Assembly: GCA_040285855.1 (NCBI GenBank)
Contig: JAUFOQ010000016.1
Location: 744,001-808,000 of the forward strand
From: Eukaryota sp. GEM-RC1
Lineage: Eukaryota
Direction of reading: 5' to 3'
Length of the DNA: 64,000 nucleotides
Shown here: piece by piece, positions 1 to 62,860 of the stretch
Numbering within the stretch: position 1 is the stretch's first letter
Layout of the letters: each line of letters starts with the position of its first letter
Made by a program: the position numbers and the translations under genes
The notes under the pieces: generated by a model
Told to the model about the DNA's origin: nothing
Databases searched by the model: none
The model's input: the letters and a program-made list of their open reading frames with translations, nothing else

Positions 1-1874
1 ACTTGACGATCTTTACAGATCATAGGAACTTGGCCTATCTAATATCAGCTCCAGAGAAGAATCGCATTGTAAAAACGATGGATTCCCATTTTATCTGAGT
101 TCGATTTTGAGATAGTGCACGTAGCTGGTAAAAACAATCAATGGGCTGACATGTTATCACGTGTTATTGACCGACGCCCAATTGAAACAATCAAATCTTT
201 GACGATATCAAACCCTTCCATCAAAAATGATATAACCCTTTGTTATGGAGACTTACGCTTTGATGATGCAGATTATTATGAGACGCTTCCACGTAGGACC
301 AACGTGCTAGCAATCAAGTGTCTTCGTGACCTCTCATTCGACAATAAACTTCCTTTATTTGATTCTTGGCTATCAACCATAAGGTTAGAACAAACTAAAG
401 CGATAGAACAAGGAGATGAACTGTTCAATGGCTCAACGTTTTGTACGAAGAGCAACATATACATCAACTCCAAGAACAAGATTTTGATTCCATCTAGCTT
501 GATAAAGAAGGTTCTTTACATGCTGCATGGCTTAGTCCAGTCAGGACATCCAAACAAGAAACAAAGTTTGGACATACTGTGCAATAGTGGGTACTTTTGG
601 CCAAGTATGAAAGCCGACATGAAGAAACATGTCGAGCAATGCCCTGCGTGTCAGAAAACGGCACCTGTCCCCAAAAGGACTATTGAATCGACGGGTTCTC
701 TATGGGCTGATAGACCTTTTGCAAGACTCAATGTCGATACAATTGGTCCACTTCCAAAAGATCAGAGTGGAAACCAATACCTCTTGGTGTTTGTAGATTC
801 GTTCACCAGATACACCATTCTGAGCCCCCTCGAAGAACTCAACAGTAACGCATATCGTCTTGTGTGGGATGTGATTGCCATCTTTGGTATACCGTTGTGT
901 ATACATAGTGACAATGGTACCGAGTTTGCCAATGCTATTTTTGAGGCAGTTTGTAACCTACTGGCGATTGAAGTAAGTCGTTCGATTCCTCATTTCTCCC
1001 AGAGTAATGGGCTGGTGGAACGACGTCACAGAGACGTTCTGCAGAGCCTACGTCGTCTCCTCGTGGACTTCAATGATTATGACAATTGGTTAACGTACAT
1101 TCCGACTGTACAGTTGCAAATCAACGCAACAAAGAGTTCAGTTACTGGACATACTCCCTACGAACTGATGTTCGGTAGCGATATAAGTCCTGGCGCAGAT
1201 CCTAGTAATTTACTAGATGCCGTTGAGAAATCAACAAAGAATGTTCCGTTTATTAACGACATTAAAATGAAACTAGATCGACTAACAAAAAGAGAGAAGA
1301 GGCAGAGGTTCGTCAATCAAATCTCAAGCCTAAGAAGAAACGTGAATCTAGTCAATCATTTAAGATTGGTGATCTTGTGTTAAAAGTCGCCAAAACTAGT
1401 AAACTCCATGGTAATTACACTGGACCATTTCTAGTAGTATCAGTTGATTCGAAATCTTCTGTATCTTTAAAGAATCTGATCACTGGTCATGTTGGCAAGA
1501 CCAGCATCCATCAATGTAAGATCTTTCAATCAGATCTACCAGCTGATCACGATCTCCACAGAGCAATTGCTTCAGGTGATTCTGAAGAACACATCGTTGT
1601 AAGGATCCTTGACAGGTTCAATACTCCTGATGGTGAACACTGTACGGTCCTCTGGTTTGGTGGTGACACTTCATCAGTTCCCACCAAGGACATCAAGAAC
1701 ACCAAGGCCTACAGTGATTTTTGTAAATTAGAAAATGTAGATTTATTTCATAGTAGTAACAAGAAGCCTAAGCTCAAACGCACCTCGAGTAGTAAGAGTA
1801 ATCCTAAGTCACCCTCTAACGTAAAGACACCTGTGGCTAAGAGAACAAGGAGCTCGAAAGAGGAGAAGATGTAG
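1..1874 (+). pseudogene. pol C-terminus (RNase H - integrase - GPY/F-like - chromodomain-like), frameshifted at ~75 and ~1290
   Basis: ORFs 115-1383 and 1377-1874 join; YTGPFLVV (GPY/F-like) and EEHIVVRILDRF...TVLWFGG (chromo-like). Confidence 0.8.
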
Positions 1875-26502: not shown

Positions 26503-27429
26503 CATAGCTGAAAAATACAAATTAGTGTATTTTTGTATTTTCACTGTATTTTTGTATTTTTGTAAAATACAAGCGTGTCTCAACAATGTATTTTTTTGTA
26601 TTTTTGTATTTTTTGACAGAAAGTGGTTGACTATCGTTCTTTGTCACTCTGAATGTGATAGCCAAACATACGAAAGTTCTTTGTAATAGTAAATGAAACA
26701 GTTGTGGGTACTTTGTCCAGACTTTGTTTTTCAAGTGTTTCGTATACTTATAAGAATTACGTCTATTAATCGAGATTTTGTCTTTTGATCTTTTTCAATT
26801 TTGATTTTGTCAAACTCAAACTGTCTTTGTTGGTACTTGGAGTCAGCCAGATAGTAGTATAGGCGTTATTGAGGAGTAGTTTACACTTGTGATTCAGTTG
26901 TTGTGATTATCGTTGAGATTATCAATACATTACCACATGTCATTATAGAACATCATTCACCTGAACTATGCACCTCGTCTACTTGTTCTCCGACCAGAAT
27001 AACAAGTTAGACCAGGTATCCTTGGTTACTGCACTGGTCACAATCAATAGTCTCAGTGGAAAATTCTTTTCACCGGGACTGATTTATGTTTTACTTCATT
27101 TTGGACCGTTTGGAGGCTAATATCGTGAAATGTAAAATAGTTCAAGTGAGACTAAGTGTTATTGTGACTAGTGTACAATGTACAAGATGGAAATGTAGTG
27201 TTCCAAGAAGAGGAAGAATCACTTCCGAAAGTAGTATCAGCATTATTAATTATCCCATGTTTCATCTGTTTGCTTATCGACATATATTCAACTTCATGTG
27301 TTGGTGTTTTTAGTAAAGTGTGTCTTAGTAATTCATTTTTTATTACAGTACTTGTATTTTTGTATTTTCGTGTGTATTTTTGTATTTTTGTATTTTTAGA
27401 ACAGGTGTTGCTTGTATTTGACAGCCATG
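26503..27429. mobile_element. Non-autonomous hAT element
   Basis: Ends catagctgaaaaatac / gtatttgacagccatg; 8-bp TSD gttgaaat; subterminal tgtatttt repeats. Confidence 0.85.
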
Positions 27430-27550
27430 GTTGAAATAGTCGGTCTTACATTGTACAATTGTACATCATAAAGTAGCGTCCAAAGTATATGGGAGATTTT
27501 TGCGAATAAACTAATTTAACACTTGCTTCTTTAAACTTGTCGGTTTAAAG

Positions 27551-28795
27551 CAGGGTCTCCGAAAAAATATTTAAATAAAATATGGCCAACTTTCTCTTGA
27601 AGAAATAAATATGAGTTATTGCAGATGAAGAAAATAAATAATTGCAATTATTTAAATTATTTATACCATTAAGACAAAAATACTACGACACTTGAAAAAT
27701 GTATTCTTACAATATAACGACTACTTCTGCTGACTTTTTGTTTCTTATAACTTTCCTCAAAGTTTCAGTGTTCCAGAAAGAACGGTTAAAGTGTAGGAAA
27801 AGTTGCCTTTCTAATGAGCCAGCATTCATACCAAAACGATGTTCACCAATAGTTCGCCGTACAGCTGAAAACAGTCTTTCACATTCATTGGAAATACCCA
27901 GGATGAATGAAAGGTCTGCATAACGTGACGCATTTTGCCTTCGAAGAGCAGAATTGTTCAAATCAGATTGGATATCTGCTGACTCCAGTGCGATATCAGA
28001 AGGCGCTTTTTCAAATTTAACAAGTGTATTCTTCTCAGCTGTAGTTAACTCCACTTCCTGTCCCTTCAAAACTTTGACGATAGCAGTTTCAAATGTCATC
28101 GAGTGCAGAATATTGGCATTTTCAGCAGTATAAGCAGTACATTGAGGAAAATGCCCATGAAACACTTCAAAAGCATCACTAATTTAGAGCAGATTCAAGT
28201 CAGCTCTTTGAAGATGCTTTGTAACATTTTCAAAACTTTCGTAGGTAGTGAGAAGTCTTCCAAGAACAGCTTGTTGCGTTAAGGAGATAACAAAATCAAG
28301 GAGAGAATCATCAAAAGAGAAAAATACATCGAGTTCTATGTATTGAAAAAATCGTTTCAGCAACTGGATGGTTGATGACCACCTCGTGGCATTTCGCTTC
28401 AAAGGTCTCAGTTGAGTTTTTTTGAAAGCGGTCAATGTGACCCAGATTCATCTCCTCTCTATACTGCGGATGTACTTTGTGGATATGGGGAAGCAGATTT
28501 GAATAGCCAGTTCCAGGTTTGATGAAAACGGGGTCACGTTCCGGACAGAATCTACATTTGTAGCCGACTTTACCATCAGGAACTTCGTCTGCCTGGGGAT
28601 TCATTTTCCGAAAGTAGAAGAGGGCGACCTCTTTGGGAGGCATACGAATCAGGGAAAGAACCAAAAAATATATAAATAATTTTTTATTTTCTGTTTTCAT
28701 AAAATAAATAATGGAGAAACCCAACTTGAAAAAATAAATTAAATATCATTATTTATTTTAAATATTTAAATACAAATATTTTTCCGTAGGCCCTG
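27551..28795 (-). mobile_element. Internally deleted hAT transposon with transposase remnant
   Basis: Imperfect TIR cagggtctccgaaaaaata / tatttttccgtaggccctg; TSD gtttaaag; BED finger YKCRFC...GYSNLLPHIHKVH, RNATRWSST, SNECERLFS. Confidence 0.93.
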
Positions 28796-37679: not shown

Positions 37680-38520
37680 AATCAGTTTAAAACTGAGAAG
37701 CCATTTCACCAATACAACCAAAAGTAGAAATAACAAGTGGAACAAACACAAATTTTGAATACAAATTTTGATTGAGTTTATCAACTTCTTTGGAATACAA
37801 ATAAATTTTGCGTTTTTAAGCTGTTTCTAGGTGATATAAACCATTTGAATTTAAGCCATTAACATAAGTCTGAGCACATGGATCAACTGTTATAACCTCA
37901 AGGATAATTTGACCAGAATCAAATAAAGGACCATGTAAGTCACCTCGACGAGACTTATTAATTAAATCAAAACCCAACTTCCTAAATAAAGGTTCAACTT
38001 CGGCATGAAATCCATGAGCGTTAAACTTTTCAAATGTAACATCTCTGAAAGCATTATGAAGAACTGAACGAAATTGAATAAATGTGGCCCAATTAGATAC
38101 ATGTCTAAAAGTGAAACTGTGACGATGACTACACACCCATTCAGAATTGTTGAGTCTTTCAGCAGAAAAAAACCTAATCGCAATTGCATATTTAATTTGT
38201 AATGCTCATCAAATGTAAACCAAAAGTACGTGGATGTTGAGTGATCAAACAAGTTGAAATCTTAGCTTCAAGAAAATCGCAAAAACGGAATTATTAAATT
38301 TAGCAACACTGAAAAATTTTCGTAATCCAGGTTTTCAAATGCCTTCACAAACTTATTTTAAGGTTTAACCACATACAAAGGAAGAGACATTGTAGATTTT
38401 TTAGGAATACTTGGGAAACGAGAAGGAAAACAGTTGTCACAAATATTCAAATCCAAATTGTCAATAACTGAGACTAACGAACTTAGCCAAGGAGTAGAGT
38501 CAAACCTCTACAATATCTTG
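37680..38520 (-). mobile_element. Non-LTR retrotransposon remnant (CRE/SLACS-like restriction-like endonuclease)
   Basis: FRSVLHNAFRD...EVEP...SRRGDL...EVITVDPC (RHD / E / RxD / D pattern). Confidence 0.7.
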
Positions 38521-38951: not shown

Positions 38952-39548
38952 TCAGAAACTGGACTGGACAAAACGGAAAAAGGAATCAACAATCGACCTC
39001 CGCTGAGCAGTTACAATTGTTTGGGTAAAGGTCGCATATTGGTCAGCAGACACATTTTCGACACTGACACGAACAAGAAAAGCAACTTGTTGTTGTTCAT
39101 TGTTGCGATATTGCTGGATTTTGCCTTGAATCCAACTAGCGGTCATTTTCTTGAACTGATTCCCATACTCCACGGATACCTGCGGTATGGAATCAGGGTG
39201 CAGTCTTTTCCCCTGTTGTTCGACCACTTCGAGGAAATGTTGTCTGAAGATGGGCTCCAAGTTCTCCTCCGTCATCACAGCAAGGTCACTGAAATAGACA
39301 GTCACTGGTGCAACGTCATCAAGTTTGTTGCTCTTTCTTCTGGACAATGCATAGAGAACATCGATTACAACCGCTTGACTTCCCTCGAAATATTGAAGAG
39401 AAGGGTCGGAGACTTCCAAAGGAGAGAGTGGGTCATCTTGAGAAAGCAGTTGTTCTTCTGAATATCGGAAGTCATCGATTGGGGGAAGAGCATCGGATTC
39501 ATCCTCGGAGAGGGGATCTGCGTAAGAAAGTAATGGTTGATTGAACAT
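38952..39548 (-). CDS. Hypothetical protein, possibly truncated or TE-derived
   Basis: 198-aa ATG ORF with acidic N-terminus, lying between TE remnants. Confidence 0.4.
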   Translation of the reverse strand: MFNQPLLSYADPLSEDESDALPPIDDFRYSEEQLLSQDDPLSPLEVSDPSLQYFEGSQAVVIDVLYALSRRKSNKLDDVAPVTVYFSDLAVMTEENLEPIFRQHFLEVVEQQGKRLHPDSIPQVSVEYGNQFKKMTASWIQGKIQQYRNNEQQQVAFLVRVSVENVSADQYATFTQTIVTAQRRSIVDSFFRFVQSSF

Positions 39549-39624: not shown

Positions 39625-40339
39625 CAGTGTTATTCCATAACCGAATTTTCAAATGTCATGCGCCGATGGCCTATGGGTCATGGCTTTCGGACGCATGGCG
39701 CGAAAACAGGCATGGCGCATTAGCAATATTTTCAATATCCAACCAAGTTAGTAGATATTACGTAAATGAACACATATCGATATGTCCCACTATGTATTAT
39801 TGGTTTGTATTTGCAAACCTGTTCTCATACAATTCATTTCACAATCAATTTGAATCGAGTTCTGATTTTGATAGTTCTCTTACTCCTGTTACATGGTGGA
39901 AACCAAATGGTCCAACAGCCTGTGTAGTCAAGAAGCTTGCCATTAAGTTAATCTCACAAGTATGTTGAGCAGGAGCATGTGAAAGGGTTTGGAGTTCCTA
40001 TTATTTTATTCACTCAAACAGAACGAACCGGCTCACCACCGAAAGAGCTAAGAAGTTAGTGTATGTGCACTTTAATTCCAAATTCCAGAAACAAGCTGGT
40101 CTTATGAAACAAAGATGGACAGAACACAGCATGGAAAGCGATTCTTACTATTAGAGCTCTTTGTATAGGTTTCATAAATAACATTCTTTAAGTATACGTA
40201 TCATAGAACTACTGTACATGCTCATGTAGTACAGTGTCATTGTTGGAATAACAACACGTGTTAACACGCCATAACAACACGGCCATAATCAGAAAATGCC
40301 ATGCGCCAATGGACGCTTGGCACGCTTGGCACAACGCTG
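39625..40339 (+). mobile_element. Deleted hAT element carrying a dimerisation-domain remnant
   Basis: Ends cagtgttattcca / tggcacaacgctg; TSD ctttaaga/cttcaaga; PVTWWK...LAIKLISQ..AGACERVWSS...NRLTTERAKKLVYVHFN. Confidence 0.85.
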
Positions 40340-40458: not shown

Positions 40459-41118
40459 CAGGGGTACTCAAAATTGAATTGCCAATTCAGTTGTTGCCAA
40501 TCAATTAATTGCAATATAAATTGGTCGATCGTTAGACCCCACCAATTAATTGGCAATTAATTGTCCAATTATCTAGTTATTGGTCTAATCAGTTTATTAT
40601 GAATAAGCAGCAGATCATTGATGGAAATCGGAAAAGTAGCTTTACAAAAATTTGTGAACAAAAAGTTTTTTATCGAAATGTCATACAGTGTGCTCTACAT
40701 TAGTCGATTCATAAATGAAATCTTTTTAGTAGTGTTACGAGAAACGCACCAAAATTAATCTGGAATCGCTGAAACGCTGAAACGTAGAAACGTTTCTCAT
40801 AACACTACTATTTTCCATGGCTAAATTTATGGTTACCCAGATAGACTTTGACTGACGGAACTCTCAATATGGAACTGTTAATGAAGCGTAGCAAACCTCC
40901 GTGGGAATGAAAAGTCTAAACGAAGATTTGTGAAGCAAATTGGTTTGAGGAAGTTGATTGTATTTGGAATTTAGTATGATAATATACGATTTTGTTTTCA
41001 TAAAACAATAACTGATTAATTGGTCAATTAATTGCCAATTAATTGCACTAATTGCAATATTAATTGTTTACATAAATTGAGAACCAATTAATTGCCAATT
41101 CAATTTTGAGTACCCCTG
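40459..41118. mobile_element. hAT MITE
   Basis: TIR CAGGGGTACTCAAAATTGAATTG; TSD attatatt; caattaattg subterminal repeats; nested 84-bp IR at 40727-40810. Confidence 0.93.
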
Positions 41119-41229
41119 ATTATATTTTTGTTAGATACAAAAACCTAAATTAATCTCAAGTCATCACAATTTCTCCGAGTTTTGACTGCTGATGGGGACA
41201 TAGAGTCTAATCATTGACCCAATCTAATT

Positions 41230-41590
41230 AAAGATCATTTCTTTATTGATTCTTTGCTACCTCATAGTTGGTTATGGCACACTATTGTAGACTATTTTGG
41301 ACAGTACATCACTGAACATAGTGTTTAATGCTCATACGTGTGAAGCAATGTCACTTGCAACAACAGAGGACAACTTGGCTGAAGATGAAAGAGATCATTG
41401 GCATCTTCTACAAACTATTTCAAGAAACGTTAGATTTGAAGAATTCTTCCAGACCACCAACCAAACAACATTTGTTTATTCCATTAAACGATGGTATCTT
41501 TAATAATGAAGCTACTCACTGGACTCTGTTGATTTGTGATATTAAGAGAAAATGATACTATTCCTTTGATCCATTGTTTACTCAAAATCA
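41230..41590 (+). pseudogene. Ulp1/C48 (SENP8/NEDP1-like) cysteine protease remnant
   Basis: SLLPHSWLWHTIVDYF; LFIPLNDGIFNNEATHWTLLICD...YYSFDPL; catalytic Cys region not seen. Confidence 0.7.
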
Positions 41591-41705
41591 ACATCAAAAG
41601 TTGGGAAAATTGCATTTATACCAGGGAAATGAAAAAAAAACTTATCATTTCTACCATACCCCTGCCAAATCTACCATACATGCTAATAAACAGAGAAGAT
41701 CGTAA

Positions 41706-42330
41706 ATGAATGGTTTTGAGAAAGAAGCTCACGACCTTGATTTTCTCGCAGATCAACAAATCATGATCTCTGTCATTATTGCAAAACTACAACCCAATGG
41801 TGAGTTACAATTTGACAACTCAATTGTCCTTTACACTGTCTACAACTATAAAATCAAATTCAGTGAATCAGAAACACCAGCTTTTAAATTAGCTCTTTTG
41901 GACTTCCCAAATAAAAACGAATTATTGGTTAAGTACGCCAATATTGTTAGTCAATTTAAACCACATGCTTTTATTGGACATAGCATTTTCAATTTTGACT
42001 TGCCCATAATTGACAATAACCTTCCACATTAAACAAATCCAAATCCAATTCAGTTACCTTTACATAGTAGATGGCTGGATATCATAAAAGATCACTATGG
42101 TTTTACAGTTTTGGATACCTTCTTATTTGCAAAGAAGTATATTGGTCTCAAGTATGGTTGTAGTCTAGCCAATTTATCTTGGAATTTACTTTCTGAACCT
42201 AAATTGAAATTGGATAAAGACTTGGATCACTTACTCCCAGTTGATTGTTTAAGAAATGATAAAAGAATGAAAACGCTAATCAACTACTGGTTCATGATTC
42301 AATTTTGGCGTTTAAATTGTGTATTTTATT
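41706..42330 (+). pseudogene. Family-B DNA polymerase 3'-5' exonuclease domain
   Basis: FPNKNELL...KPHAFIGHSIFNFDLPII (ExoII); DTFLFAKK...CSLANLSWNLL...K; NY[C]VHDSILAFKL (ExoIII after restoring 1 nt). Confidence 0.8.
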
Positions 42331-42349
42331 TCAAAAAGACAAAATTGTT

Positions 42350-44625
42350 TTTCAATCATGGGCTTCTATTAAAACTTCAGTTGTTAGTGTGGTAAAACAT
42401 CAAGAAGTTCAAGATCCTATGCTTTTGGGATCTCAGTTCTACAATGCGTCAAGACAACACACTACAATGACAATGTGTGTTAAAGAATATGTGTTGTCTC
42501 GCTATCGTCTTGGACAAGATTTGTCAAAGTTTGATTACAAGTTGTTTTATCATACAATGCTTTCAATTAGAAATCTTTCATCTGAAGTTCATAACTTTAA
42601 AATTCCAAATAATCGTCCTATATCAACAATTGATACAGATCTTCGTGATTTTGTTGCTGGAGAAGGAATTTCTACCGCCAATTCAAACTACCCTGGATTT
42701 AAGCACTGTGTTACTGGAAACATTTGGCACATGTCATTTACCAGAACTTGATTTTGATCATATCAGTAGAGCTTTTGAATACACTACTCAGTATGAAGTG
42801 TGGCCTGCGTTTGAATTAAATATTCGTCGCAATTATGAGTTGTACATTTACAGATTTATCAATACAGTAATGGGTAAGAAAGAGTTTGAAAAGGGAATGA
42901 AAGAGAGCCGTAATTTAGTTTTAGGTCCAGAACTTACAGGCCTGACAGGACATGAAGCTCAAAAGTTCACTAGTTACTTCAGATTTCGTTTAAAGATGTT
43001 GAAAGACCAGACTTTGTATCGACCCAGACATGAAGCCTTACAGCATATTAATTCTTTTAATTCTCTGCCACTCACCCTGAAAATGTTAAGTTTATTGATG
43101 AAGTTTCCAAAGTTTTTGATGATGATTTCAGTATGTTAATATTTGAACAGATTAATTCCCTAATGACTGATAAAATTCCAGAATTACTTCAAAGATTAAA
43201 CATCATATTTCCTGCTTCAATCACTACAAACGAGAATGAAACTGTAGACGTCCACAATTGACTTTACACAGTTCAGGACCATTCTCTTCATTTTCTAGGA
43301 AACTCTCTTCAAATCTCAGATTACTTGGAATCCAAGGGTGATAAGTTGTATAAAGTAATTCCTCTAAGTTTGAAGACTATTCCCTGTTTATTCCCAATAG
43401 ATACTAGAACTCTTTGGGGACTGGCTAAGCACTGTATTGGATATGAGAATAATGATAAGAACATTGGTCCTTTACATTCAAAAGTGACTAATTACATGTC
43501 TGCTGATCAGATTAATGACTTGACCCATCCTCAACAACAAGATTACTGGAAAAGATGGTTTAACTGTGATGACAGAAGTTTTCACAAAGCCAATTTTGAA
43601 TTCAACAACTATGCTGTAACTGATGGAATTTCGATTTGTTTTCAATTTGTGAGAAAAGATTTGAAAGGAATGAAATGTAAACCTGATTCAAGTAAAGCTT
43701 CAGTAAAAGTACAATATTTCAATGAATGTGATAGGTCTGATTGTATCTCTAAACAAATGGTTTATGTGGACATTGGAAAGAGAGATATGCTACAACTTGC
43801 ATCAAAATCAAATAGGGAAACTCAAAAGCCTCTAAAGAAATACAACTTCTTACGATTGACATATGCTGAGTGGTCTAGAGTTTCAAGAAAGCATAAAAGA
43901 ATCCACCAGTACCTTGTCAGAAAGAGATCTGGTACTAATCCCTCAGGTCAGACAAAGACTATTGAGGAATGGAACACTTGGTTAGGTGAAGATCAGGATT
44001 CTAAGACAGTCATCTACAATAAATTTAGAGAATTTATGCTGAATAAATGTATTCACTACAATGCAACTAAAGACTTCTATGCTTTGCATATATGGAGGAT
44101 TCACAAAATCCAAATCATGTCCATAAGCAAAAGACAGAGTCTAAATTGGTTAACAGCATTGTGAGAACTTTTGGTAAGTGTGACAAAATTGTACTATGTA
44201 TTGGTGATTTAGGTCAGAAGCCAATGACCAACTTAAAACACAGTCCACCATCGAGAACTAAAACTTGGACTTCATTCTTTCAGAGAAACGGTTTTCTAAT
44301 AGTAATGAATGATGAGAGAAACACTTCGTCCAAGTGTCCAGAATGTCATGAATATGTTTTTGAAACTTCTAATGAGGTTGTCAACCCAAAGCCCAAATCA
44401 AGAGAGAAGAGAGAATGGATTCATCCACATGGCTTACTAGAGTGTAAGAGCAAACATTGTCTGGGAGAAGTCAAGAAGCTATTGAAAGGATAAAAGATAG
44501 GGCACACATTGCCCATTCAAATGTATTGGAATCGTAACAAGATGGCTTGTTTGAACATGATGAACATGTTCGAACACTGGATGAGTGGAGGTGATGAGAA
44601 AGTTGAGTATTTGTGTAGAAATTAG
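42350..44625 (+). pseudogene. Fanzor (eukaryotic TnpB-derived RNA-guided RuvC nuclease), full length but disrupted
   Basis: IKTSVVSVVK; ELNIRRNY...RFIN; KVIPL...IP..FPIDT; VTDGISIC; YVDIGKRD (RuvC-I); IGDLGQK; DERNTSSKCPEC (RuvC-II + Zn); HGLLECKSKHC; WNRNKMACLNM (RuvC-III); EYLCRN*. Confidence 0.88.
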
Positions 44626-44694
44626 CTTTATTTTTGTTAAAACCCGGCCATATTTGGTTAAGTCCATACAATTGTACAGATAGGTACTTTGTAG

Positions 44695-45247
44695 CATAGT
44701 TGCAAAATATAAAATACAGTATTTGCATGTATTCTGTATTTTTTTCCGGAAAAGTGTACAATGTATTTGTATTTTTATTTGTTTTTCTTGTATTTTCTGC
44801 ACATCACTGAGTTTCATCCTGTTTTGATGATGTACGTGTAGTCTTTGGGGACTATGAGAACAAGTGTAAATTTTGTTACCTACAAGCGGTACAATAAGAC
44901 GATTTACAACTAATGTACGAGACAAAAAGTGTCCAAAGTCACATTGTACAACTGTATAACTGCACATCAGTACTTTCCGTGGACGTAATGAACTTTTGAA
45001 CCTTTTAGCATTTTAGAATCGAAAGAACAATTGGGTTGATATATATAAAGAAGTCTAAGAATGCGTAACGAAGAGGTGAACCCTGATAACCCTGAAGATC
45101 AATCACGTAGGACTCAATACAGTTAGTTTAATACTTGCCATTACATTAAAAAGATACACTTAAGACAGTATTCTGTATTGTATTTGTATTCTGTATTGTA
45201 TTATTCTGTATTGTATTATTTTTTTGTCCGTGTATTTTGCAACTATG
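44695..45247. mobile_element. hAT MITE inserted 69 bp downstream of the Fanzor stop codon
   Basis: TIR CATAGTTGCAAAATA; TSD ctttgtag (44687-44694, 45248-45255). Confidence 0.93.
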
Positions 45248-45601
45248 CTTTGTAGCTATATTTGCAATGAAGAGGTGTTTCGTGTTGATTGTTCAACAGT
45301 GTCATAAAAGTCACTGAAATTGAGATTGAGTTCAGACCAAGGGCCTGTCTATTCAATACCACTTTTTTATTGTAACATTAACAATGAGAAAAAAGATTCT
45401 TAAGCAAACAGTGTACAGTGTATTTAGTATACGTACACATTATAAAACTACATTTACTAAAAATATTATTCAACTTTTTGCATTGAACTCAGATCGCCTC
45501 ATACTCAGTGTGTAGAGACCAAGTGCGAACAAAAACACGTCAGACTTGGTATCTTAGTAGAACAGCCAGAGGAAAATCAATATTTCACACGTTTGCACTA
45601 A

Positions 45602-46177
45602 ATGCCAATCACCGTAATGATATATCACCTTCTCTTTGGATTACTCCTTTTCGGATGTCTAGCATGTGAACATTCTTGTTACGATTCAACTTGCACAATA
45701 TCTGGAGGCTCAAAGGAACGTTGTACTTGTGGTTCAAGAAACTATGGAGAAGTTACAAAGTATTATGCTTATTGTTTTGCAAAAGACGCAACTGCATGTG
45801 AACAGTCTGTTGGAAGAACAAGCTGTTCGATTGAAGGCCAACATGCAGCATGTGGTCTTGACTCACGTTCATACTACACCACAACTTGGTTCGTTGCTTT
45901 TTGTCAGGCCCGAAACGCTCCCCGATGTTCTATTTCTGCATATGATTCAAAATGTGAAATTGTGGGAGAAAAGGCGAGTTGTGGTACTACTCTTACTCAT
46001 GGGGGAAGAAATACGTATCTTGTGCCTCGCTGCAATGCTGCAAATGCTGTACAGTGTTCTATCAAGTGTGGTGGAGATTATTGTGAAAAACTATGTCCTC
46101 AACATGGGAAAAGAGCAGACTGTCATTGTAAGGCATCTACTTCTGGGGTTTTATTAGCACGTTGCAATTGTCTCTAA
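45602..46177 (+). CDS. Secreted cysteine-rich repeat protein
   Basis: Hydrophobic N-terminus; three ~40-aa C-x6-C-x6/8-CG...C-A..A..C modules plus a Cys-rich tail. Confidence 0.75.
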   Translation: MPITVMIYHLLFGLLLFGCLACEHSCYDSTCTISGGSKERCTCGSRNYGEVTKYYAYCFAKDATACEQSVGRTSCSIEGQHAACGLDSRSYYTTTWFVAFCQARNAPRCSISAYDSKCEIVGEKASCGTTLTHGGRNTYLVPRCNAANAVQCSIKCGGDYCEKLCPQHGKRADCHCKASTSGVLLARCNCL

Positions 46178-46282: not shown

Positions 46283-47428
46283 CATTCATGCGCCATTGTG
46301 TGCCATACACGTATGGACTCCCATACGTCCATACGCTTATGGCAATTTCTGTTTTTGCCATACGCATTTTGACGAAATGTATCTGTATTTGAACTTTTCG
46401 CAGAGAGACTCTATGACATGTTTGTAATTATGTAGATAAATATACTTTAGTGAAAACCAAACCTTCACATCATCCATCTCATTGGAAAAATTTTGACCAT
46501 CAGGATACCATCTCTGCTTCCATTGTTGGATGTCTTTGATCTGAGTTCCAATTAATGTGTATAGATACCAGTTTTTTGTGCGTTCATTATAAATTTGTTC
46601 TTGTTCGTATCTCACTTTTTTTAAAATAGTTCTACAAAGTGAAAAAACTACAAAAGATCTTTTTCATCGTTTATTGTGAATGAATGAGTACGTACCAGTG
46701 TTCGAAATTTCCCACGTGTTTTTCAAAAGACACCGTGTCGGTGTTAACACGCGTGTCCACACGGTGTCTTTGATGTGTCTTTTGGGTGTTTTTGCGTGTT
46801 TTTTTGGAAAATAATTTCTCATCAACTATATAGAGTTTGACCATCAACACATACTTTTGGGCCAATTCTTGCCTTTATCTGACATCCCATCACTGAATCT
46901 TGGATACTGTGGTTCTGTTGAGTTGAATTGTGTTCTAGGTCTGTTTGACAACGCATCATGTCAGTATTTTGGCCACTTTCTGTTGGCATTGCAGTCTATT
47001 GTGGTATAACATATAGAAAAACATTCAAGTCGAACAGTGTTGAGGGAAATAAAAGGGTACTTTCGAAGTTTTCTAGGTTTTTTGCAGAAAAACACGTACA
47101 CACGCGGTGTCTTTTTGCGTGTTTTTCTGCGTGTTTTTCAAAAGACACCGTGTCCGTGTCCAAACGTGTCTGCATGTCCAAACGTGTCCACGCGTGTCTT
47201 CGAACACTGGTACGTACTCAACCTGTTTCAAACAATTCTACAGACCGTACTTCTGATACTAATTTGATGACAAATTGAAGTGTATGAGTTGGTATTTAGA
47301 CATAATGAAGTTAAACGTTGGAAAGATTCTGCTAGACATGGTTTGATGCCCATTGTCAGCCATTCTGCCATACGTCCATACGCCCATAAGCATATGACAA
47401 ATTTATTTTTGGTTATGGCGCAAGACTG
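46283..47428. mobile_element. Probable MITE with ccatacg subterminal repeats, hosting a nested MITE
   Basis: Ends cattcatgcgccat / atggcgcaagactg; ccatacgtccatacg at both ends; no TSD found. Confidence 0.55.
46696..47209. mobile_element. Nested hAT MITE
   Basis: TIR cagtgttcgaa; TSD gtacgtac; aaagacaccgtgtc repeats. Confidence 0.9.
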
Positions 47429-57343: not shown

Positions 57344-57366
57344 AAGAAAAAAAGTTCACTCTTTTG

Positions 57367-60300
57367 ATGGTAATTCCTGGACTTGATCAACTAGGTTCAT
57401 CAGATCAAGAGATATCTCATCTACGGAAAACTAATGAAGCTCTCCGAAAGGAAATCGATGAGCTTGTGGAACATTCCAGTCTTCGTGACCAGCAACAAGA
57501 GTCTCTTATATCATCTCTTCAATCTGAACTTATCAAGTTTAAATCTGATATCGCCAATTCTCATTCTCAAACAGAGGCATTTAATGAAGCTGTGGCAGAG
57601 TTACATTCTGAAGTCAGTAATTATAAGAAACAGTTATCTGATATGAAGGAAAGTTATTCTCTTGAACAGGAAAAATCTAATCAATTATTGGCTGAATTGA
57701 ATCAATTAAAAGAACAATTGGAGTTTGTTAATCACAATTATAGTTCTGAATCTACGCAACTGTCAACAGAGTTGTCCAATTTGAAGGAAAGTTACTCTCT
57801 TGAACAAGAAAAATCTAATCAATTATTGACTGAATCTAATCAATTAAAAGAACAATTGGAGTTGGTTAATCAAAATTATAGTTCTGAATCTACGCAACTG
57901 TCAACAGAGTTGTCCAATTTGAAGGAAAGTTATTCTCTTGAACAGGAAAAATCTAATCAATTAAAAGAACAATTGGAGTTGGTTAATCAAAATTATAGTT
58001 CTGAATCCACGCAACTGTCAACAGAGTTGTCCAATTTGAAGGAAAGTTATTCTCTTGAACAGGAAAAATCTAATCAATTATTGACTGAATTGAATCAATT
58101 AAGAGAACAATTGGAGTTGGTTAATCACAATTATAGTTCTGAATCTACGCAACTTTCAACAGAGTTGTCCAATTTGAAGGAAAGTTATTCTCTTGAACAA
58201 GAAAAATCTAATCAGTTAAAAGAACAATTGGAGTTGGTTAATCAAAATTATAGTTCTGAATCCACGCAACTGTCAACAGAGTTGTCCAATTTGAAGGAAA
58301 GTTATTCTCTTGAACAGGAAAAATCTAATCAATTAAAAGAACAATTGGAGTTGGTTAATCAAAATTATAGTTCTGAATCCACGCAACTGTCAACAGAGTT
58401 GTCCAATTTGAAGGAAAGTTATTCTCTTGAACATGAAAAATCTAATCAATTAAAAGAACAATTGGAGTTGGTTAATCAAAATTGTAGTTCTGAATCCACG
58501 CAACTGTCAACAGAGTTGTCCAATTTGAAGGAAAGTTATTCTCTTGAACAGGAAAAATCTAATCAATTATTGACTGAAATGAATCAATTAAAAGAACAAT
58601 TGGAGTTGGTTAATCAAAATTATAGTTCTGAATCCACGCAACTGTCAACAGAGTTGTCCAATTTGAAGGAAAGTTATTCTCTTGAACAGGAAAAATCTAA
58701 TCAATTAAAAGAACAATTGGAGTTGGTTAATCAAAATTATAGTTCTGAATCCACGCAACTGTCAACAGAGTTGTCCAATTTGAAGGAAAGTTATTCTCTT
58801 GAACAGGAAAAATCTAATCAATTAAAAGAACAATTGGAGTTGGTTAATCAAAATTATAGTTCTGAATCCACGCAACTGTCAACAGAGTTGTCCAATTTGA
58901 AGGAAAGTTATTCTCTTGAACAGGAAAAATCTAATCAATTATTGACTGAATTGAATCAATTAAAAGAACAATTGGAGTTTGTTAATCAAAATTATAGTTC
59001 TGAATCCACGCAACTGTCAACAGAGTTGTCCAATTTGAAGGAAAGTTATTCTCTTGAACAGGAAAAATCTAATCAATTATTGACTGAATTGAATCAATTA
59101 AGAGAACAATTGGAGTTGGTTAATCACAATTATAGTTCTGAATCTACGCAACTGTCAACAGAGTTGTCCAATTTGAAGGAAAGTTATTCTCTTGAACAGG
59201 AAAAATCTAATCAATTAAAAGAACAATTGGAGTTGGTTAATCAAAATTATAGTTCTGAATCCACACAACTGTCAACAGAGTTGTCCAATTTGAAGGAAAG
59301 TTATTCTCTTGAACAGGAAAAATCCAATCAATTAAAAGAACAATTGGAATTGGTTAATCAAAATTATAGTTCTGAATCCACGCAACTGTCAACAGAGTTG
59401 TCCAATTTGAAGGAAAGTTATTCTCTTGAACAGGAAAAATCTAATCAATTTTTGACTGAATTGAATCAATTAAAAGAACAATTGGAGTTGGTTAATCACA
59501 ATTATAGTTCTGAATCTACCCAACTGTCATCGGAATTATCCGATTTGAAGGAAAGTTATTCTCTTGAACAGGAAAAATCTAATCAATTATTGACTGAGTT
59601 GAATCAATTAAGAGAACAATTGGAGTTGGTTAATCACAATTATAGTTCTGAATCTACGCAACTGTCAACAGAGTTGTCCAATTTGAAGGAAAGTTATTCT
59701 CTTGAACAGGAAAAACCTAATCAATTAAAAAGAACAATTGGAGTTGGTTAATCAAAATTATAGTTCTGCATCCACGCAACTGTCAACAGAGTTGTCCAAT
59801 TTGAAGGAAAGTTATTGTCTCGAACAAGAAAAATCTAATCAATTAAAAGAACAATTGGAGTTGATTAATCAAAATTATAGTTCTGAATCCACGCAACTGT
59901 CAACAGAGTTGTCCAATTTGAAGGAAAGTTATTCTCTTGAACAGGAAAAATCTAATCAATTAAAAGAACAATTGGAGTTGGTTAATCAAAATTATAGTTC
60001 TGAATCCACGCAACTGTCAACAGAGTTGTCCAATTTGAAGGAAAGTTATTCTCTTGAACAGGAAAAATCTAATCAATTATTGACTGAATTGAATCAATTA
60101 AAAGAACAATTGGAGTTTGTTAATCAAAATTATAGTTCTGAATCCACGCAACTGTCAACAGAGTTGTCCAATTTGAAGGAAAGTTATTCTCTTGAACAGG
60201 AAAAATCTAATCAATTATTGACTGAAATGAATCAATTAAAAGAACAATTGGAGTTGGTTAATCACAATTATAGTTCTGAATCTACCCAACTGTCATCGGA

Positions 60301-62860
60301 ATTATCCGATTTGAAGGAAAGTTATTCTCTTGAACAGGAAAAATCTAATCAATTATTGACTGAGTTGAATCAATTAAGAGAACAATTGGAGTTGGTTAAT
60401 CACAATTATAGTTCTGAATCTACGCAACTGTCAACAGAGTTGTCCAATTTGAAGGAAAGTTATTCTCTTGAACAGGAAAAATCTAATCAATTAAAAGAAC
60501 AATTGGAGTTGGTTAATCAAAATTATAGTTCTGCATCCACGCAACTGTCAACAGAGTTGTCCAATTTGAAGGAAAGTTATTGTCTCGAACAAGAAAAATC
60601 TAATCAATTAAAAGAACAATTGGAGTTGATTAATCAAAATTATAGTTCTGAATCCACGCAACTGTCAACAGAGTTGTCCAATTTGAAGGAAAGTTATTCT
60701 CTTGAACAGGAAAAATCTAATCAATTAAAAGAACAATTGGAGTTTGTTAATCAAAATTATAGTTCTGAATCCACGCAACTGTCAACAGAGTTGTCCAATT
60801 TGAAGGAAAGTTATTCTCTTGAACAGGAAAAATCTAATCAATTATTGACTGAAATGAATCAATTAAAAGAACAATTGGAGTTGGTTAATCAAAATTATAG
60901 TTCTGAATCCACGCAACTGTCAACAGAGTTGTCCAATTTGAAGGAAAGTTATTCTCTTGAACAGGAAAAATCTAATCAATTATTGACTGAAATGAATCAA
61001 TTAAAAGAACAATTGGAGTTGGTTAATCAAAATTATAGTTCTGAATCCACGCAACTGTCAACAGAGTTGTCCAATTTGAAGAAAAGTTATTCTCTTGAAC
61101 AGGAAAAATCTAATCAATTTTTGACTGAATTGAATCAATTAAAAGAACAATTGGAGTTGGTTAATCAAAATTGTAGTTCTGAATCCACGCAACTGTCAAC
61201 AGAGTTGTCCAATTTGAAGGAAAGTTATTCTCTTGAACAGGAAAAATCTAATCAATTATTGACTGAAATGAATCAATTAAAAGAACAATTGGAGTTGGTT
61301 AATCAAAATTATAGTTCTGAATCCACGCAACTGTCAACAGAGTTGTCCAATTTGAAGGAAAGTTATTCTCTTGAACAGGAAAAATCTAATCAATTAAAAG
61401 AACAATTGGAGTTGATTAATCAAAATTATAGTTCTGAATCCACGCAACTGTCAACAGAGTTGTCCAATTTGAAGGAAAGTTATTCTCTTGAACAGGAAAA
61501 ATCTAATCAATTAAAAGAACAATTGGAGTTGGTTAATCAAAATTATAGTTCTGAATCCACGCAACTGTCAACAGAGTTGTCCAATTTGAAGGAAAGTTAT
61601 TCTCTTGAACAGGAAAAATCTAATCAATTATTGACTGAATTGAATCAATTAAAAGAACAATTGGAGTTTGTTAATCAAAATTATAGTTCTGAATCCACGC
61701 AACTGTCAACAGAGTTGTCCAATTTGAAGGAAAGTTATTCTCTTGAACAGGAAAAATCTAATCAATTATTGACTGAATTGAATCAATTAAAAGAACAATT
61801 GGAGTTTGTTAATCAAAATTATAGTTCTGAATCCACGCAACTGTCAACAGAGTTGTCCAATTTGAAGGAAAGTTATTCTCTTGAACAGGAAAAATCTAAT
61901 CAATTAAAAGAACAATTGGAGTTGGTTAATCAAAATTATAGTTCTGAATCCACGCAACTGTCAACAGAGTTGTCCAATTTGAAGGAAAGTTATTGTCTCG
62001 AACAAGAAAAATCTAATCAATTAAAAGAACAATTGGAGTTGATTAATCAAAATTATAGTTCTGAATCCACGCAACTGTCAACAGAGTTGTCCAATTTGAA
62101 GGAAAGTTATTCTCTTGAACAGGAAAAATCTAATCAATTAAAAGAAAAATTGGAGTTGGTTAATCAAAATTATAGTTCTGAATCCACGCAACTGTCAACA
62201 GAGTTGTCCAATTTGAAGGAAAGTTATTCTCTTGAACAGGAAAAATCTAATCAATTAAAAGAACAATTGGAGTTGGTTAATCAAAATTATAGTTCTGAAT
62301 CCACGCAACTGTCAACAGAGTTGTCCAATTTGAAGGAAAGTTATTCTCTTGAACAGGAAAAATCTAATCAATTAAAAGAACAATTGGAGTTGGTTAGTCA
62401 AAATTATAGTTCTGAATCCACGCAACTGTCAACAGAGTTGTCCAATTTGAAGGAAAGTTATTCTCTTGAACAGGAAAAATCTAATCAATTATTGACTGAA
62501 TTGAATCAATTAAAAGAACAATTGGAGTTGGTTAATCAAAATTATAGTTCTGAATCCACGCAACTGTCATCAGAGTTGTCCAATTTGAAGGAAAGGTACT
62601 CTCTTGAACAGGAAAAATCTAATCAATTATTGACTGATGACGTTTTGCCACTATTTGGAGAAAAGCTCACTTTAATGACTGAGCTCAATAACCTCCAATC
62701 AATTAACGAATCAGTGTTATCAAAATATTCTTCTCTTCTTGTCAAGTATAAGGAACTTGGTGTATCTTCAAAAGCCGAAAAGGATCGTAATGGACTTCTC
62801 AGAAGAAGACTTGCCAAGAATAGCAGGGAACCTCCAATCAAAATTAAAAAGGTGTCATAG
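57367..62860 (+). CDS. Giant tandem-repeat coiled-coil protein (~1,830 aa); frameshift at ~59727-59731
   Basis: Unique N- and C-termini flanking ~40 units of LKESYSLEQEKSNQ[LLTELNQ]LKEQLELVNQNYSSESTQLSTELSN. Confidence 0.85.
57643..62636 (+). repeat. Coding minisatellite with 117-bp and 138-bp units
   Basis: ttgaaggaaagtt recurs at 57781, 57919 (+138), 58036 (+117) and onward. Confidence 0.97.

Follow-up and report, generated by a model that had tools for sequence, protein, structure and literature searches.

A decayed protist Fanzor1 gene and its relatives suggest a natural fusion of Fanzor with a polymerase-type exonuclease

The window analysed here, a stretch of 64,000 nucleotides from Eukaryota sp. 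GEM-RC1, contains a decayed member of a multi-copy Fanzor1 gene family. Judging from the sequences of its relatives, the fusion of this Fanzor with an upstream 3'-5' exonuclease is very probably real, and a metamonad clade of such exonuclease–Fanzor fusions, set within a 2A-punctuated polyprotein, appears to be the new part of the finding. The window copy retains the following parts of the fusion:

41679..42349, + strand: remnant of a family-B polymerase-type 3'-5' exonuclease (PF03104, E 1.1e-6; 82% to P0008 over 228 columns)
42350..44625, + strand: Fanzor1 moiety of ~758 codons that continues the frame of the last exonuclease helix; three frameshifts and two in-frame stops
43769..43771, + strand: RuvC-I Asp, in a DIG context instead of DPG
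44314..44316, + strand: relocated RuvC-II Glu, just ahead of the CxxC zinc finger
44536..44538, + strand: RuvC-III Asn, found clade-wide

A direct reading of the window gives the codons GAC at 43769-71, GAG at 44314-16, TAA at 44491-93, AAC at 44536-38 (within WNRNK) and TAG at 44623-25. The motifs TDGIS, VDIGK, IGDLG, DERNTSSKCPEC, CKSKHC and EYLCRN start at 43619, 43766, 44200, 44311, 44443 and 44605, respectively. All of the codon and motif positions given in a preliminary description of this DNA were found in place. That description counted four ORFs plus a tail; the tail is present, and the Fanzor part consists of five stop-to-stop ORFs. It also called the Fanzor full-length, which the gene structure contradicts, as the gene is a fusion starting well upstream of 42350. 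Position 42350 is not the gene start, because no ATG precedes 42419 and the frame is open upstream into the exonuclease domain. The proposed length of about 750 residues is therefore right for the Fanzor moiety and too short for the whole protein.

The same description took the locus for a decayed copy, and the lesions bear this out. Frameshifts lie near 42716, 43063 and 44113 and in-frame stops at 43259-61 and 44491-93, with more lesions upstream of the Fanzor part, and the window pieces are 77-90% identical, by HSP, to the relative P0012. The in-frame stops, the 10-15% divergence, the internal deletion and the nested insertions of the window copy argue for real decay. The skoliomonad assemblies are reported to be long-read assemblies polished with short reads (bioRxiv 10.1101/2023.05.03.539051), and five of the six GEM-RC1 proteins that reach a purine-rich C-terminal site (P0007, P0009, P0011, P0014 and P0015) lose the frame there, where the window has a TAA; for these two reasons, some of the frameshifts may be assembly errors. 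The shared frame loss may reflect a shared defective master, assembly error or recoding.

With the 300-aa middle ORF as the query, two proteins were matched among 505 candidates, one from Eukaryota sp. GEM-RC1 (83%) and one from TZLM1-RC (46%), and the clusters of these two proteins contain 18 members (15 listed) and 11 members, respectively. At least nine members of the 18-member cluster lie on one 3.72-Mb contig (9 of the 15 listed), a pattern that local hopping or a clustering bias may explain. The C-terminal query retrieved 267 proteins at E ≤0.001, of which the best 150 were listed, and nine of the ten top matches originate from GEM-RC1, TZLM1-RC or TZLM3-RCL, hereafter called the isolates. 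GEM-RC and TZLM3-RCL are reported to be Skoliomonas isolates, soda-lake metamonads (bioRxiv 10.1101/2023.05.03.539051); we infer that TZLM1-RC is S. litria and that the window host belongs in the skoliomonad group. The relatives' genes are dispersed, multi-copy and mostly broken, and five subfamilies across the three isolates are 30-56% identical in Fanzor and 30-49% in the exonuclease. Related loci were not found in metagenome contigs, nor relatives in viral contigs; the exonuclease part had no match in phage records, and an atlas search with the whole of P0178 gave no usable match. With the P0022 exonuclease region as the query, a search of limited sensitivity, P0001 was the sole match among proteins of 678-2158 aa. 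A helicase at the front of P0177, present in one of four cluster members, was taken as a merged gene model outside the element.

We regard it as virtually certain, from its sequence and from the fold of an intact relative, that the window gene is a Fanzor1. The C-terminal 163 aa of the window (with the stop read as X) match PpFz1 with E 1.5e-13 and SpuFz1 with E 3.6e-8, and WNRNK is placed opposite their WNRD; the Pfam match of the Fanzor part is weak (PF07282, E 0.01, under the cut-off). The fold evidence comes from a model of P0178, an intact relative that is 32% to P0012 (pLDDT 69.6, mostly 70-95 past residue 380). Fanzor1 chains take the first seven places among its structure matches (E between 1.5e-27 and 9.4e-17), SpuFz1 with E 1.5e-27 and a TMt of 0.81-0.83; Cas12f (3.6e-4) and Fanzor2 (1.5e-2) come after them, and the model matches the Fanzor1 fold with its enlarged REC and WED. 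These sequence and structure matches uphold the earlier proposal of a Fanzor1 in a protist host.

The TDG and RuvC-II motifs agree with this assignment. The TDG motif in the WED, reported to mark Fanzor1 (PMC10711439), is present as TDGIS at 43619, and the isolate proteins carry 25 TDG and 5 TNG. The RuvC-II Glu, relocated to about six residues ahead of the zinc finger, lies in DERNTSSKCPEC, which aligns with PpFz1 and SpuFz1. At RuvC-I, where DPG is reported to be near exclusive in Fanzors (PMC10711439), the 28 isolate proteins with the motif have DPG (13), DIG (10) or DLG (5); the window has DIG and keeps the Asp, and the departure from DPG is nested inside a DPG clade. A TZLM1-RC subfamily that is sister to the window's (P0002, P0017, P0019, P0022 and P0023) has TNG for TDG and DLG at RuvC-I. 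Like the window gene, SpuFz1 (Spizellomyces punctatus; PDB 8GKH, 9CEU-9CEZ) and PpFz1 (Parasitella parasitica; 9CF0-9CF3) are both Fanzor1s, and all share the fold (by the TMt to SpuFz1), TDG, the relocated RuvC-II Glu, the CxxC zinc finger and the WNR motif. In contrast, the window family has the RuvC-III Asn, an N-terminal exonuclease and an upstream 2A/protease region; moreover, the window's subfamily has DIG at RuvC-I, and terminal inverted repeats of the element were not found.

How closely is the exonuclease joined to Fanzor? In the window DNA itself, the last helix of the exonuclease and the first strand of Fanzor are encoded in a single frame by the ORF 42263-42751, and among the intact relatives P0022 (1233 aa), P0032 (1281) and P0178 (1096), as well as P0192 and P0188, both parts occupy one ORF. 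Sixteen isolate proteins reach beyond the first Fanzor strand on its upstream side; an exonuclease profile made from six of them matched all 16 and none of the 140 other matches listed, 38 of which have at least 600 aa. In five subfamilies, which come from three isolates, a linker of about ten residues, constant in length and devoid of a 2A motif, lies between the exonuclease and the first strand of Fanzor. The D-x-E, N-x3-F-D and Y-x3-D motifs are all present in seven proteins of three subfamilies, and two further subfamilies keep the ExoII and ExoIII motifs where the sequence reaches. The DEDDy residues (ExoI D-x-E, ExoII D and ExoIII Y-x3-D) are thus complete in relatives and not intact in the window, in which ExoI is deleted, ExoII lies at 41976-41999 and ExoIII (42279-42298) is broken by a frameshift.

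Sequence, Foldseek and VIA-align all favour the proofreading domains of family-B polymerases as the nearest kin of this exonuclease. A separate model of the domain (pLDDT 60) gave a modest best match (Z 8.7, rmsd 3.8 over 113 residues); family-B DNA polymerases fill the first 15 places among its fold matches, and REXO2 and 3'hExo appear among the weaker ones. Language-model features score 0.93 to stand-alone PF03104 clusters of ~205-214 aa. The domain thus resembles PF03104 proofreading domains (T4/RB69 gp43, HSV UL30, Pol epsilon/delta) in the ExoI/II/III motifs and the fold; unlike in family-B polymerases, it comes without a polymerase domain and is attached to an RNA-guided nuclease. In the full P0178 model, the exonuclease part has low confidence, and its placement relative to the DNA is therefore not defined.

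Two further remnants precede the exonuclease in the window:

41191..41220, + strand: decayed 2A-like (StopGo) motif, reading DGDIESNH*P, the sole match to a loose 2A pattern in the six frames of the window
41322..41645, + strand: Ulp1/C48 cysteine-protease remnant (PF02902, E 1.5e-4, 22.1 bits against a cut-off of 20.7, with the stop read as X)

The window protease has its His motif at 41517 and its Asp motif at 41562, and the Cys part is deleted; in P0192, the H, the D and QxxxxxDCG are all present. Presumably, as in Ulp1-bearing transposons, such a protease may strip SUMO or a like tag, evading silencing or steering repair. Intact GD[VI]ExNPGP occurs in P0008, P0022, P0025 and P0192, that is, in 4 of 57 isolate proteins as compared to 0 of 142 others (expected 1.4e-6). 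P0192 and the window have the 2A motif ahead of the protease, and P0025 has it behind; in P0008 and P0022 it precedes the linker and is followed by PKKRK. The composite order, pieced together from these four proteins and the window and complete in no single record, is 2A, protease, 2A, basic linker, exonuclease and Fanzor; within the predicted ORFs of the P0032 subfamily, neither 2A nor protease was found. A 2A motif alone is reported to be insufficient for ribosome skipping (PMC3708506), and most descriptions of 2A peptides concern RNA viruses and retroelements (bioRxiv 10.64898/2026.09.24.754024). As in published accounts of APE-type non-LTR retrotransposons (L1Tc, Ingi, CR1, L2) and RNA viruses, GD[V/I]ExNPGP here belongs to a mobile-element polyprotein; unlike those retrotransposons, this one has no reverse transcriptase or APE domain, and apparently two 2A motifs surround the protease.

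The surroundings of the gene are shaped by later insertions and deletion derivatives of hAT type:

39625..40339, + strand: separate hAT deletion derivative with a dimerisation-domain remnant (PF05699, E 5.8e-8), 10/14 inverted repeat, 7/8 target duplication
40459..41118, no strand assigned: later miniature insertion, hAT-like, immediately 5' of the 2A-like motif; 14/14 terminal inverted repeat, 8/8 target duplication
44695..45247, no strand assigned: later miniature insertion, hAT-like, within the 3' flank and outside the element; 14/14 terminal inverted repeat, 8/8 target duplication

A further miniature element of hAT type (11/14 terminal repeat, 8/8 duplication) lies at 46696-47209. Decayed pieces of a hAT-like transposase at 26526-28745 (- strand; weak PF05699, E 0.049; a BED-finger-like motif by eye) carry a 40-nt repeat at 26526 and 27353 and are a possible source of the hAT insertions. 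Elsewhere in the window, an LTR retrotransposon integrase with a C-terminal extension (PF00665, PF17921) lies at 73-1874 (+), and a very long coiled-coil gene with 39- and 46-residue tandem units and one frame change near 59740 at 57346-62860 (+). A short frame at 37816-38205 (-) with RRGDL and EVITVDP has no Pfam match; we take it to resemble the restriction-like endonuclease of non-LTR elements.

With the first two insertions skipped, 254 nt remain between the 2A-like motif and the start of a divergent single-copy gene, so a transposase or polymerase has no room upstream. The divergent ORF 38955-39548 was considered as a transposase; its only match was itself, and it was treated as a host gene. 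Between the flanks, with insertions skipped, no terminal inverted or direct repeat exceeded 12/14 in this AT-rich sequence, and neither the element's own terminal repeats nor a target duplication or transposase was found at the window locus. Likewise, no Polinton or endogenous large DNA virus genes (polymerase, capsid, integrase) stand beside the gene in the window.

These features bear on the possibility that the three coding parts, protease, exonuclease and Fanzor, were left behind by a larger endogenous virus or transposon and that their fusion serves no joint function, which we consider highly improbable. The 2A motifs, the cysteine protease and the polymerase-type exonuclease are indeed all virus-like, and LTR retrotransposon polyproteins are reported to carry DnaQ-like exonucleases as accessory domains (PMC6338049). 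However, the missing polymerase, capsid or transposase cannot fit into the space upstream, and none lies downstream; furthermore, the linker keeps its length throughout the five subfamilies, and the 2A motifs set apart the protease rather than the exonuclease.

Next, we consider the catalytic triad. Among the isolate relatives that reach the RuvC-III site (from GEM-RC1, TZLM1-RC and TZLM3-RCL), 34 of 35 carry Asn, as against 10 N, 109 D and 1 E in the 120 other rows. The initial tally from a one-profile alignment was 33 N, 1 D and 14 gaps for the isolates and 109 D, 11 N, 1 E and 34 gaps for the others; P0043 (N), at first counted among the 11 other-row Asn, is also from TZLM3-RCL, which gives the present 34/35 and 10/120. 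In a quick IQ-TREE tree of 141 rows that include the site and have 135 or more aligned residues (no bootstrap, midpoint root, TnpB and named Fanzor rows absent), the window and isolate proteins form a single group of 32 rows, 31 with N and one with D, with SH-aLRT 99. The phylogeny suggested in the preliminary description, here of relatives only, thus places the window inside the Asn clade, and P0018, the sole Asp copy of the isolate clade, is nested among Asn copies. Because 34 of the 35 isolate relatives share it, the Asn is, by sequence comparison, not a lesion of the window copy. A RuvC-III Asn also occurs outside the clade, for example in four Coemansia Fanzor1s (P0052, P0064, P0096 and P0112), which have it without the exonuclease, in an apparently separate D-to-N change.

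The preliminary description had reasoned that an Asn shared by other copies would make the family a nuclease-dead RNA-guided binder. The Asn is indeed shared; the conclusion does not follow, since the D-E-N triad is already in print as a cleavage-competent Fanzor1 triad (PMC11423790), and the change taken by itself gives no reason to regard the enzyme as dead. GtFz1 is reported to cleave with its natural D-E-N triad, SpuFz1 D606N to cleave better than the wild type, and GtFz1 N658D to cleave less than native GtFz1 (PMC11423790). By analogy with the first two of these, a shared Asn does not imply a dead nuclease, and the skoliomonad Asn is in all likelihood compatible with cutting. GtFz1 is also reported to cut in vitro, yet to give no detectable indels in human cells (PMC10432273). 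An inactivating loss of a RuvC residue, as in TldR-like proteins, is not seen here: the Asp and the Glu are kept, and a third-position Asn is not inactivating in Fanzor1. GtFz1 (Guillardia theta; PDB 9CER) resembles the present family in its Asn as the third catalytic residue, in the fold match (E 9.4e-17) and in having no clear transposase association in the published account (PMC10432273). It differs in being only 14% identical to the P0178 model in the structural alignment and in that no exonuclease is reported for it in the literature consulted.

Could the RuvC domain nevertheless have ceased to cut, with Fanzor only delivering the exonuclease or repressing a locus? The fixation of Asn in the clade, the departure of the RuvC-I context from DPG in two subfamilies and the second nuclease on board would fit such a protein. 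We judge it quite improbable, because two Fanzor1s are reported to cleave with D-E-N (PMC11423790), the RuvC-I Asp and RuvC-II Glu are kept across subfamilies only 30-56% identical, and DPG is intact in 13 of the 28 isolate proteins with the motif. Moreover, the Coemansia Fanzors have the Asn without an exonuclease, and a 3'-5' exonuclease needs a free end, which RuvC would supply.

The 3' region contains a possible guide RNA:

45262..45375, + strand: candidate omega-RNA scaffold with a 16-bp closing stem, four G-U pairs and no mismatch

This sequence lies 75 nt past the stop with the third insertion skipped. Its fold has a z of -3.1 on the + strand and -0.4 on the - strand, in a segment picked after looking; the stem is weaker in a sliding scan (-1.6, where the scan window cuts the stem) and in a 145-nt window (-1.7), and Rfam gave no match. 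In a sliding 110-nt fold scan, 4 of 44 windows in the 3' region and 0 of 24 in the coding body fall below z -2.5, and 44545-44660 is a second fold candidate (z -2.8). We therefore treat 45262-45375 as a guide-RNA candidate only. Just downstream, a 191-aa cysteine-rich ORF at 45602-46177 (+), with a hydrophobic N terminus and no Pfam match, was taken as a host secreted protein.

An active Fanzor might instead use the exonuclease to mature its guide RNA, trimming a read-through 3' end to guide length. Fanzor RNAs are reported to run 14-15 nt into the unconserved flank (PMC13565253), which means that the 3' end must be set, and the DEDD fold includes RNases, such as the REXO2 and 3'hExo found among the weaker fold matches. 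This reading is nonetheless rather unlikely: the 15 top-ranking fold matches belong without exception to family-B DNA polymerases, and other Fanzor1 RNAs are reported to mature without a fused nuclease, even in yeast (PMC10432273).

What, then, would the fusion do? In our preferred reading, to which we give about an even chance, it is an active RNA-guided nuclease predicted to trim the DNA end that it has just cut. In its boldest form, this reading is that the skoliomonad Fanzor1 clade combines a D-E-N endonuclease with a built-in exonuclease resecting its own cut to the TAM, accompanied by a SUMO-type protease in the same virus-like 2A polyprotein, and would constitute a natural cut-and-trim homing enzyme, possibly spreading without a transposase; this we hold tentatively, at slightly less than even likelihood.

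According to this proposal, ribosome skipping at the 2A motifs would release the protease and a nuclear exonuclease–Fanzor. Fanzor, guided by an RNA from the right end of the element, would then cut the empty site left after excision, which would need a transposase acting in trans, because the element has none. Restorative homing, in which the element is restored by gene conversion once a nuclease has cut the empty site, has been described (PMC13565253); a demonstration by Fanzor itself was not found in the literature consulted. As the cut of Fanzor1s in the non-target strand is reported to lie 14-17 nt beyond the TAM (PMC10432273), the TAM-side end would keep a 3' tail of right-flank sequence that mismatches the donor at the left junction. 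The tethered 3'-5' exonuclease, on the WED side of Fanzor, would remove this tail in cis, whereupon gene conversion would restore the element. In yeast gene conversion, Pol delta proofreading and Rad1-Rad10 are reported to remove 3' non-homologous tails (PMC9477423); tail trimming has roughly one chance in two of being the job of the exonuclease. Counting against cut-and-trim homing, engineered exonuclease fusions (TREX1, TREX2, T5) are all reported to have impaired MmeFz2 editing (PMC12923547), and further points against it are DIG or DLG for DPG at RuvC-I and TNG for TDG in the sister subfamily.

A destructive role is also conceivable, in which the exonuclease widens the Fanzor break into deletions, blocks religation or destroys rival elements or viral DNA, with no part in homing. 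Exonuclease fusions reportedly serve to raise editing by RNA-guided nucleases (PMC12923547), and the element yielded no transposase. We consider this role unlikely, since dispersed, multi-copy and mostly broken genes are the pattern of a selfish element, not of a domesticated defence gene, and the MmeFz2 results speak against it as well.

In the literature, we found no natural exonuclease–Fanzor fusion (supplementary survey tables, subscription papers and Repbase lay outside the search) and no paper treating Fanzor together with Skoliomonas. The word "exonuclease" is absent from the main texts of PMC3627910, PMC10432273, PMC10711439 and PMC13565253, and also from the searched text of PMC10530073, which reports that Fanzors often bear further domains.

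That three isolates have all kept the exonuclease fused to Fanzor suggests that ends are processed once the cut is made. The homing model needs such processing, and no Fanzor protein that supplies it was found in the literature searched. Given the failed engineered MmeFz2 fusions, a natural nuclease–exonuclease pair would be of interest for editing. Furthermore, natural intact copies from cultured protists (P0022, P0032 and P0178) make cleavage, trimming, 2A skipping and homing directly testable.
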